A stretch of DNA of 64,000 nt from assembly GCF_030013205.1 (NCBI RefSeq), contig NZ_CP122648.1; one strand, written 5' to 3'. The stretch's first letter is position 1, and each line of letters begins with the position of its first letter. Position numbers and translations under genes: made by a program. Below are positions 546 through 1,793 of this stretch, piece after piece. The notes below the pieces were generated by a model. The model made no database searches and was not told where the DNA came from. It saw only the letters and a program-made list of their open reading frames with translations. This DNA comes from Escherichia coli (GTDB lineage: Bacteria > Pseudomonadota > Gammaproteobacteria > Enterobacterales > Enterobacteriaceae).

Positions 546-995
546 CTATAGTTTAATGACCTCGCCAAGCTTACCCCCCTCATCGGCATAAAAAGCACTC
601 AAATACAGATCACCCTTATTTTCTTTTGTAAACTCAAATTCCTCTATTAGAGAGTAATGTTCATATGTAGAGCGATAGGTTAAAACCACAACATTATGAT
701 TAATTACATTACTCGCCAATAAGTTTATTTTATTTAATCTTCCAAACACCTGTTTTTTTTCTTTCATTATCGTTATAAAAACATCTTCCGATGTTGCTTT
801 TTTAAATTCACTGCTTGTGTCAGAGTAGATTTTGTCCACTTCATTCTGATTGTATAGTTTTTGAATGATAACAACTTTATCCTGCGCAATTTTTCTAATA
901 TCAGCATCATTCTTTATTACATTATGACTAATGTCTTTCCCCAAAAACATAAAAACCACTACTGCTACAATAACAATACTCACTTTTATTTTCAT
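546..995 (-). CDS. Putative immunity protein for orphan Rhs toxin cassette 2 (149 aa, N-terminal hydrophobic anchor or signal)
   Basis: Track ORF 546..995; starts 4 bp downstream of the orphan rhs-CT ORF; AT-rich; N-terminus MKIKVSIVIVAVVVFMFLG is hydrophobic; position typical of rhsI genes. No family recognised. Confidence 0.5.
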   Translation of the reverse strand: MKIKVSIVIVAVVVFMFLGKDISHNVIKNDADIRKIAQDKVVIIQKLYNQNEVDKIYSDTSSEFKKATSEDVFITIMKEKKQVFGRLNKINLLASNVINHNVVVLTYRSTYEHYSLIEEFEFTKENKGDLYLSAFYADEGGKLGEVIKL

Positions 996-998
996 AAA

Positions 999-1793
999 TT
1001 AATATCCTGCCAATTGTGATAAACACCATAAACTTTGCGAACAGGTAAGTTCGCCAACAAAACCACCAAATCCGGGACCAATACTCACTGTGCCTGAATT
1101 TTTTCCGTCTGCATCCCTAACCCCTGCAATGGAATATTTTTTCAAATAACCACCTGTAGATATATAACCTTTAGTAAGATACTCCCCCGGAGAGATTTTT
1201 GCTTGCGATGCTGTACCTGACAAAGAAATACCGATTGCAGAACCAACACCATTATGTTCACACAAAGTATAATACATACAAACATCCAGATTAGCTGGAG
1301 CTCTGTCATTCCCCCCAACTGTTGCTCCCACAGCAAAACTAGCCCCTGTAAATTCGTCACCATTAAAACTTATATCAATAGATCCTGAACCAGGGAAAGG
1401 AGTAGTATAAATTTTAGAAGTCACATCCGAAGGAGCGTTATTATTATACATAGAGTTATTCATAAATTCGCCCCAATTGCTATATAATCCCAAAGCATCT
1501 GTGTATGCAACAGGATTCAACGGATACTGATAAAAATTCCATCCCCACTTCAGCCCAATCGGATCATGAGTGATATACCGCCCCTGCAGCGGGTCATAAT
1601 AGCGGTGGCGGTTGTAATACAGGCCGGACTCCTCATCATACTGCTGCCCCGGCAGGCGGACAAGCTGCTGCAGCTGATGCGGGTTCTCTTCATTCAGCAG
1701 GTTGCCCCACTCATCGTATTCTGCGCACCATTCTGTTGCCCCTTCCGTGCTGATAAGCGCCAGCGGCAGGTTATTCGGTTTGCGTCGTTGAGT
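999..1793 (-). CDS. Orphan rhs C-terminal cassette 2: Rhs core-end fragment plus glycine-rich C-terminal toxin domain, no ATG start
   Basis: Minus-strand frame open from about 1793; by hand translation encodes ...[92 protein letters not shown] (homologous to the core end of the main Rhs) followed by a Gly-rich divergent domain (track ORF 999..1520 from a TTG). Nucleotide homology to 5760..5990 and 2880..3120. Confidence 0.6.

Follow-up and report, generated by a model that had tools for sequence, protein, structure and literature searches.

Downstream of the full-length rhs gene in a 64,000-nucleotide window of the Escherichia coli genome (all coordinates below are positions in this window), a piece of Rhs core that has no start codon is fused to a glycine-rich domain and followed by a small open reading frame, ORF 546-995, all on the minus strand. 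What is this element, can it be used in its present state, and how would its product act? Almost certainly it is an orphan Rhs toxin/immunity cassette, at present unarmed, that sits at rhsC in a pig-associated E. coli lineage. It lies on the same strand as the full-length gene and downstream of it; it contains a core remnant that ends in the protease motif and has no N-terminal region, YD-repeat shell or start codon; its C-terminal domain (the tip) differs from the core in composition; and a small candidate immunity ORF follows directly. Judged by these features, which include every defining feature that sequence can test, the object is a standard orphan rhs-CT/rhsI module. Modules described from E. 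coli rhs loci and from Salmonella Typhimurium (rhs-orphan) are likewise found downstream of a full-length rhs gene in the same orientation, with the last ~95 core codons to (P)xxxxD-x-x-GL, an AT-rich tip, a small immunity gene directly after it, and arming by recombination (PMC7043789, PMC3150448). The present cassette differs from them in that its tip belongs to an unnamed family, its motif reads DALGL rather than DPxGL, and its immunity protein is predicted to be exported rather than cytoplasmic.

The minus-strand frame is open from 1793 to 999, preceded by two stop codons at about 1800 and closed by a TAA at 1001-999. DNA alignment against the main rhs gene and a neighboring orphan cassette (orphan 1) puts an abrupt onset of Rhs homology at 1770 (CCTGCCGCTGGCG...) and its end at 1485. 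This 286-bp core fragment is 93-94% identical to the core ends of both, and is fused in frame to a tip of 161 amino acids; the TQRRKPNN leader in front of it is shared with Escherichia albertii. The fragment matches Pfam RHS (E 2.7e-6) and aligns to the C-terminal plug of solved Rhs proteins in a search of PDB chain sequences (E 1e-18). The Rhs aspartyl-protease motif is DPXG-X18-DPXG (PMC10684867); in the core fragment both aspartates and the X18 spacing are retained, and the second proline has become alanine. Across the family this second half of the motif reads DALGL in Escherichia (window 1485-1499), DSMGL in the Buttiauxella orphan, and DP(L/F/R/Q)GL in members carried on longer Rhs proteins. 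The core fragment has a G+C content of 57-59%, the tip one of 33-45% and the immunity gene one of 27-30%. No ATG or GTG occurs in frame between the upstream stops and 1485. The frame does contain a TTG at 1520 and an ATG at 1463, and no sign that the latter is used as a start was found. Three nucleotides separate the toxin stop from the ATG of the immunity gene (995-993). The first-pass annotation of this DNA was therefore right to place a second orphan rhs cassette here (main rhs, orphan 1 and this cassette follow in order) and to describe its core end as lacking an ATG. Its core end of about 90 residues from about 1793 holds for the open frame but not for the homology, which begins at 1770 and covers 95 codons. 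Similarly, the Gly/Ser richness it reported is confirmed, while the domain is 161 residues long and not about 170.

ORF 546-995 is intact and starts with a strongly hydrophobic stretch (VSIVIVAVVVFMFLG; mean Kyte-Doolittle hydropathy 3.07), in agreement with the N-terminal anchor proposed for it earlier. It matches Pfam DUF3887 (E 9.1e-5) and DUF4019 (E 1.7e-3), both of which are NTF2-like. Matches to both domains at E<=0.1 were obtained for eight of ten partner-family members (best 8e-6 and 1.4e-6, respectively), and a precomputed DUF4019 match exists for the Lelliottia partner. A homologue of ORF 546-995 adjoins a tip of the same family in six other loci. The Buttiauxella partner, 45% identical to ORF 546-995, follows such a tip, and on a soil metagenome contig (L008) partner homologues follow the tips of two tandem cassettes. 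Even after distant tips, the next gene always encodes a protein of 130-160 amino acids that can be aligned with ORF 546-995 (alignment A4). Every partner has either a signal-anchor or a lipobox, with lipoboxes (LSGC, LAAC, LHGC, LVGC, ITGC) in six of them. In T6SS (type VI secretion system) biology, an immunity protein is located where the effector acts, so an exported partner argues for a periplasmic or membrane target, and we think it likely that the tip acts in the periplasm. From the pairing in seven loci, together with the purifying selection described below, we infer that the tip is neutralized by the downstream protein. Among known groups the partners come closest to the NTF2-like immunity proteins (Pfam Imm-NTF2 families) and DUF3887/DUF4019. 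DUF3887-type NTF2 domains are typically found in secreted proteins or lipoproteins (PMC3924330), and in their secretion signal or lipobox the partners resemble most DUF3887 proteins. DUF3887 has no assigned function and comes mainly from Firmicutes. Neither of two papers that name DUF3887 mentions pairing with an Rhs tip.

The tip itself matched no family in Pfam, NCBIfam or PADLOC. The tip region of the window protein has no Pfam match at E<=10, a Pfam search with 18 members of the tip family gave no match at E<=0.1 (R_equi_Vir included), and neither the tip (phmmer) nor the profile of the family alignment A1 found a relevant match among all PDB chain sequences at E<=10. A word-indexed search of 5.8 billion proteins returned only Escherichia copies, some of them frameshifted or with a 12-aa deletion. 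When the same protein set was searched with the A1 profile, glycine-rich word matches dominated and nothing was added; in species-representative genomes, the A3 profile gave eight pattern matches, none of which was confirmed. An exhaustive HMMER scan of 1.84 billion cluster representatives yielded 20 proteins. The hosts of the family are Escherichia, Buttiauxella, Lelliottia, Klebsiella, Paraburkholderia and metagenomes, and for several members the carrier is a long YD-repeat protein in which DPLGL is canonical. At one locus (L007) the tip is carried by a full Rhs protein whose only break is a single in-frame stop; at a second (L010) the Rhs protein is continuous across a scaffold gap; and at a third, in Lelliottia (L015), the contig ends within the Rhs gene that bears the tip, and only the immunity gene and unrelated genes come after the tip. 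The presence of the tip on these long Rhs proteins means that armed toxins elsewhere make use of this family.

Alignment A1 contains two CX5C motifs (C69, C75, C148 and C154); Tyr71 is invariant in it, and over 15 glycines are conserved. No column of A1 is conserved for His, Lys, Arg or Glu, and besides Gly, Cys and Y71 there are three partly conserved aspartates; this lack of catalytic-type conservation fits non-enzymatic membrane action. In keeping with paired cysteines, the homologue P0043 has lost C75 and C148 together; a truncated Klebsiella fragment breaks the pattern. Compared to E. albertii, the tip has nine synonymous and six non-synonymous differences (23% of changes would be synonymous under neutrality; dN/dS 0.19; binomial p = 0.002), and the immunity gene has a dN/dS of 0.28 (p = 0.003). 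This shows that both genes have been under purifying selection since the split of E. coli and E. albertii. Homologues of both ORFs occur as adjacent pairs in other genera, within Enterobacterales and beyond, so the cassette is more than an accident of the sequence. The earlier description of the domain as unlike nuclease tips also holds, since it matches neither a nuclease nor any other named domain in Pfam or NCBIfam. We conclude that tip and partner very probably form a genuine toxin/immunity family. Literature linking Rhs with Vap proteins, or dealing with DUF3887, contains no description of this tip that we could find, and in the libraries and literature searched there appears to be no account of the tip family or of the fact that it is always paired with exported DUF3887/DUF4019 proteins. 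Two tandem arrangements were seen among the relatives: contig L008 holds two complete tip/immunity pairs (93-1072 and 1196-2661), and on a Buttiauxella contig (L003, 2600-3185) a second immunity gene, which is paralogous and encodes a lipoprotein, is preceded by what is left of the C-terminal part of a tip (E 2.8e-11, A1 profile).

A structural model of the tip depended on the alignment. Single-sequence AlphaFold was unusable (pLDDT 32). With A1 as input, the model reached a pLDDT of 69 and a pTM of 0.61, was all beta over residues 33-154, and left residues 1-30 unstructured. Glycine accounts for 18% of residues 31-161 and serine for 12%; with Ala and Thr added, the share is 45%. The four cysteines fall on predicted strands 3 and 8, and their positions add up to the same sum (69+154 = 75+148 = 223), as two in-register antiparallel disulfides, predicted to be C69-C154 and C75-C148, would require. 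In the Vap barrels of Rhodococcus equi, strand 3 lies next to strand 8, as it does not in a meander barrel; this adjacency follows from their Greek keys and crossovers together with the published strand order. In each of strands 1, 2 and 4 of the tip model, one face is hydrophobic and the other is 72-95% Gly/Ala/Ser/Thr across the family. Vap barrels have eight strands in two Greek keys, with b3-b4 and b7-b8 crossovers, and a glycine "bald" surface that binds detergent (PMC8329714). The cysteine layout and the Gly/Ala/Ser/Thr face agree independently with a predicted Vap-like fold. By sequence, the tip is not a member of the Vap family. VapA, VapB, VapD and VapG (R_equi_Vir; PDB 4cv7, 5aeo) have no detectable sequence similarity to it. 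They belong to a Gram-positive pathogen, which secretes them or bears them on its surface, and the host vacuole is where they act; they are not known to have the four conserved cysteines or to be polymorphic-toxin tips that come with immunity partners. By analogy, VapA-like action of the tip may nevertheless apply.

Foldseek against the AlphaFold database recovered 93 models at E<1e-3. Most are Rhs C-termini, with hosts that span Enterobacterales, Treponema and Bacteroidota; a ShlA/FhaA-type exoprotein is also among them. While models in this database are not independent of the prediction method used for the tip, the result suggests a larger structural superfamily of polymorphic-toxin tips. 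One database entry, A0A354WZZ7 ("Bacterial toxin 23 domain-containing"), aligns weakly to the tip model (TM 0.48), and none of the tip family members matches the Bacterial toxin 23 Pfam domain. The boldest extension would be that the tip belongs to a widespread, unnamed superfamily of disulfide-stapled Vap-like barrels that kill bacteria by letting protons leak through the inner membrane, which they would attack from its periplasmic side; we consider this doubtful, if conceivable.

Taken together, the reading that we prefer is that the cassette encodes an immunity protein and a toxin that recombination can activate and the T6SS can deliver, and that acts in the periplasm, probably without enzymatic activity and by perturbing membranes. 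Its activity is something we infer, and for the reading as a whole we see the chances for and against as about equal. In this scheme, the core fragment would recombine with the main rhs gene by a RecA-type mechanism, which would delete about 4.2 kb and place the tip on a full-length Rhs shell; mobilizing the Salmonella orphan also requires a recombination event (PMC7043789). The Rhs aspartyl protease would then release the tip by cleavage behind DALGL, and a neighboring cell would receive it through the T6SS. In the periplasm the tip would oxidize and fold into a small Gly-rich eight-stranded barrel stapled by C69-C154 and C75-C148. It would act without enzymatic activity by damaging the envelope, most likely by binding and permeabilizing the inner membrane so that the proton gradient collapses, as VapA does with host membranes. 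The membrane-anchored NTF2-like immunity protein would bind or sequester the tip in the periplasm. At present the toxin would not be delivered; the cassette would serve as a reserve tip, and an intact immunity gene would protect against kin that carry the armed version. Membrane permeabilization by the tip is the weakest link, an analogy that we put forward tentatively and rate at somewhat less than an even chance. VapA binds and permeabilizes liposomes and collapses pH gradients, and membrane binding or permeabilization has been reported for both VapA and VapN (PMC10100859). The suggestion of the first-pass annotation that the domain is possibly membrane-active is unproven but fits the exported partners, the four conserved cysteines and the absence of conserved catalytic residues.

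Several observations weigh against this proposal. Toxicity, target and neutralization are all predicted. The DALGL and DSMGL forms of the second protease motif are non-canonical next to the DPxGL of full-length carriers, so cleavage after arming might be impaired. All close relatives of the tip (at least 44% identity; Escherichia, Salmonella bongori and Buttiauxella) are orphans or fragments. The Vap comparison is also open to question, as no family member matches Pfam R_equi_Vir (PF05526) even at E 0.1 and a Foldseek search of the tip model against the PDB gave no match below E 0.02 and did not recover Vap. Since that search gave nothing significant, the Vap likeness rests on one method and a medium-confidence model. 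With regard to delivery, the N-terminus of the main Rhs protein (9377-9436, minus strand) has a strong DUF6531 match, but its PAAR match is marginal (E 0.18, residues 2-20), and no vgrG or other T6SS gene flanks the locus, where ybfA and kdp lie upstream. Given the weak PAAR match and the lack of flanking T6SS genes, T6SS delivery rests on published work on E. coli Rhs proteins (PMC6730261). Finally, the AST215 tip carries a frameshift (a 1-bp loss in an A-run near window position 1142) and E. albertii tips are deleted or frameshifted in some copies, so the cassette is decaying in several genomes; together with the immunity-gene losses described below, the AST215 frameshift points to erosion in some of the lineage.

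How well do other explanations account for the same data? The one that survives best keeps the tip in the periplasm and has it bind or block a specific envelope target, such as cell-wall, lipoprotein or outer-membrane biogenesis, or sequester a small-molecule ligand in the manner of avidin-like barrels, with no permeabilization. We think this unlikely, as no such target can be named, and the Gly/Ala/Ser/Thr strand faces and low strand charge fit lipid contact at least equally.

The erosion just described raises the possibility that the cassette is a decaying relic, left over from a past tip displacement, with a toxin and an immunity protein that have no function in this lineage and are heading to loss. 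The distribution of the cassette is compatible with this: by near and distant BLAST, tip and immunity DNA are found in just 18 of 5,426 complete E. coli genomes. Seventeen of these carriers are pig isolates (enterotoxigenic E. coli [ETEC], O139:H1) with at least 99.8% identity, and the remaining one is a human isolate with 95.4%. So is the state of the genes, with toxin or immunity gene disrupted in eight of the 18. Five pig genomes have an IS1 element inside the immunity gene (for example, ETEC6333, locus L016, 1254-1951), and in two others (ETEC1748 and ETEC4067) a 1-bp deletion cuts the immunity protein to 86 amino acids; the toxin frame is intact in all seven. The missing ATG, the non-canonical second protease motif, the truncated or frameshifted copies in E. 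albertii, and a promoter and terminator scan that returned nine sites where 8.3 are expected by chance also speak for a relic. Against this, the window and nine other genomes retain the two frames undamaged, the dN/dS values of 0.19 and 0.28 indicate purifying selection, and the same pair is retained in other genera. On balance, we regard a functionless relic as improbable.

A third possibility is expression of the orphan where it stands. Transcription would begin at an internal promoter and translation at an internal or non-ATG start, and the products would tune the growth of their own host in the manner of a toxin-antitoxin module. There is precedent for this in the orphan Rhs tips of Salmonella Typhimurium, which are expressed internally from a promoter (P2) within the conserved core end with a CTG start (PMC7043789). 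In the window, the in-frame TTG 1520 and ATG 1463 could serve as starts, and the NCBI Prokaryotic Genome Annotation Pipeline (PGAP) calls a 154-aa ORF. At the position equivalent to P2, the window reads ATGATG-N17-TACAAC, a poor match. A TTGTCC-17-TATGAT site is present within the core fragment at 1635-1663 (minus strand), its -35 element formed by Leu-Val codons (CTT GTC) where the main rhs gene has Leu-Ile (CTC ATC); as the scan is at chance level, this site is not evidence and is only a lead. A toxin made in place would be cytoplasmic, with no export signal, yet the immunity protein is exported. Furthermore, loss of immunity is tolerated in the seven genomes that retain an intact toxin frame. 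This indicates that the orphan toxin is harmless in place, either because it is not made or because it is made in the cytoplasm, away from its target. For these reasons we hold such a module expressed in place to be highly improbable. The earlier statement that the cassette is probably silent unless recombined gains indirect support from the same seven of 18 genomes; given the in-frame ATG 1463 and TTG 1520 and the Salmonella precedent, silence is probable rather than certain. The pig ETEC isolates in which IS1 has naturally inactivated the immunity gene would make sensitive target strains.

Least probable of all is a cytoplasmic enzyme (nuclease, deaminase, ADP-ribosyltransferase or NADase) too divergent to recognize. 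Nucleases and other enzymes do make up the majority of characterized E. coli Rhs tips (PMC6730261), but this tip matches no toxin family in Pfam or NCBIfam, lacks conserved His, Lys, Arg and Glu, is modelled as all-beta and glycine-rich, and has partners that are all exported. A nuclease or other enzyme was accordingly rejected as a candidate for lack of a family match and of catalytic-type conservation, as was a Tse5-like or glycine-zipper helical pore former, since the tip has no hydrophobic helices and showed no similarity among PDB chain sequences. It might also resemble those glycine-rich class II microcins that end in a disulfide loop.

The orphan tip could be armed through recombination with the core end of the main rhs gene (Table 1). 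The locus is rhsC, between kdp-ybfA and ybfD-ybgA-phr, as seen from the identical region in annotated genomes. Its elements follow in the order main rhs, IS630 scrap, ISAs1 (H-repeat), orphan 1 with its DUF6258 immunity gene, orphan 2 (the cassette studied here) and IS1 scrap. Combined with different tips, the DUF6258 gene and a core fragment recur in other places, and at rhsB, for instance, an Imm57 partner goes with them; this is the usual modular shuffling. In strain AST215 (locus L002, 5546-10238, compared with window 1894-9436), the orphan 1 tip and DUF6258 gene stand directly on the main rhs gene, with no ISAs1 or extra cassette between them; this arrangement is a natural example of tip exchange at the rhsC locus.

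Table 1. Features of the studied cassette and of the neighboring rhs elements (positions in the window).
Feature	Position	Strand	Description	Basis
Leader	1771..1793	-	8 in-frame codons, TQRRKPNN; not Rhs-derived; no start codon	Translation and core-end alignment
Rhs core-end fragment	1485..1770	-	95 codons; DPIG-X18-DALG	DNA alignment with main rhs and orphan 1 core ends
Toxin tip	999..1484	-	161 codons and TAA stop; residues 1-30 low-confidence linker; residues 31-161 (nt 1394-1002) predicted eight-stranded Gly-rich beta-barrel; CX5C at C69/C75 and C148/C154	
Internal ATG	1461..1463	-	Met8 of tip; PGAP start of 154-aa "hypothetical protein" WP_077882466.1; possible internal start	
Shine-Dalgarno AGGA	1005..1008	-	For the immunity gene, within the last toxin codons	Read from sequence
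Immunity candidate	546..995	-	149 aa; signal-anchor at residues 4-19 (nt 986-939), then NTF2-like DUF3887/DUF4019 domain predicted to be periplasmic	
Orphan cassette 1	1894..3203	-	Core-end fragment and other tip (2301-3203), DUF6258 immunity gene (1894-2286); immediately upstream of the studied cassette	
Main rhs	5186..9436	-	1416 aa; DUF6531 and YD repeats; core end is potential recombination partner of the orphan tip	

Other features of the locus were also recorded. The main rhs gene has its own tip (5186-5600, minus strand) and a downstream 58-aa ORF (4694-4870, minus strand), an interval in which an IS630 fragment is the sole PGAP annotation. Between the main rhs gene and the orphans lies a transposase gene of the ISAs1 family (H-repeat; 3216-4289, minus strand); it is listed as a 357-aa ORF from a GTG in the ORF list and as a pseudogene with an internal stop by PGAP. 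After the cassette come a conserved 44-aa ORF (249-383, minus strand; WP_001389504.1, hypothetical) and an IS1 InsA-like fragment (55-231), and this pair is kept in all annotated relatives examined.

Among known toxins, Tse5-CT of Pseudomonas aeruginosa is comparable in being Rhs-encapsulated, non-enzymatic, about 16 kDa in size and released by a DPXG...DPXG protease; it depolarizes target cells and has been proposed to act preferentially from the periplasmic side (PMC9637101, PMC10684867). The present tip differs from it in having no similarity to Tse5 entries in the PDB chain search, no hydrophobic helix (maximum Kyte-Doolittle 0.76 over 19 residues) and a predicted all-beta fold. The ionophoric CdiA-CT toxins of the EC93 type are, like this tip, contact-delivered polymorphic tips and, as the present tip may, target the inner membrane rather than nucleic acids (PMC11630599). 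They differ in being carried by CdiA and in having an integral membrane immunity protein, whereas here the carrier is Rhs and the candidate immunity protein is a singly anchored or lipidated soluble NTF2-like domain.

The architecture of the cassette is textbook and adds nothing new; the unusual part is a toxin domain with no entry in Pfam, NCBIfam or the PDB. Most characterized E. coli Rhs tips are cytoplasmic nucleases. A periplasmic, disulfide-dependent beta-barrel tip would, if confirmed, widen the killing repertoire of T6SS/Rhs systems. DUF3887/DUF4019 proteins would gain a first concrete role, as immunity proteins. If the resemblance to Vap proteins is real, the cassette would also give an experimental handle on how Vap barrels disturb membranes. 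Under the superfamily proposal, the enigmatic Vap virulence factors of R. equi would be relatives, or mechanistic twins at the least, of an interbacterial weapon, and their membrane action could be worked out in E. coli, where genetics is easy and a cognate immunity protein is at hand.

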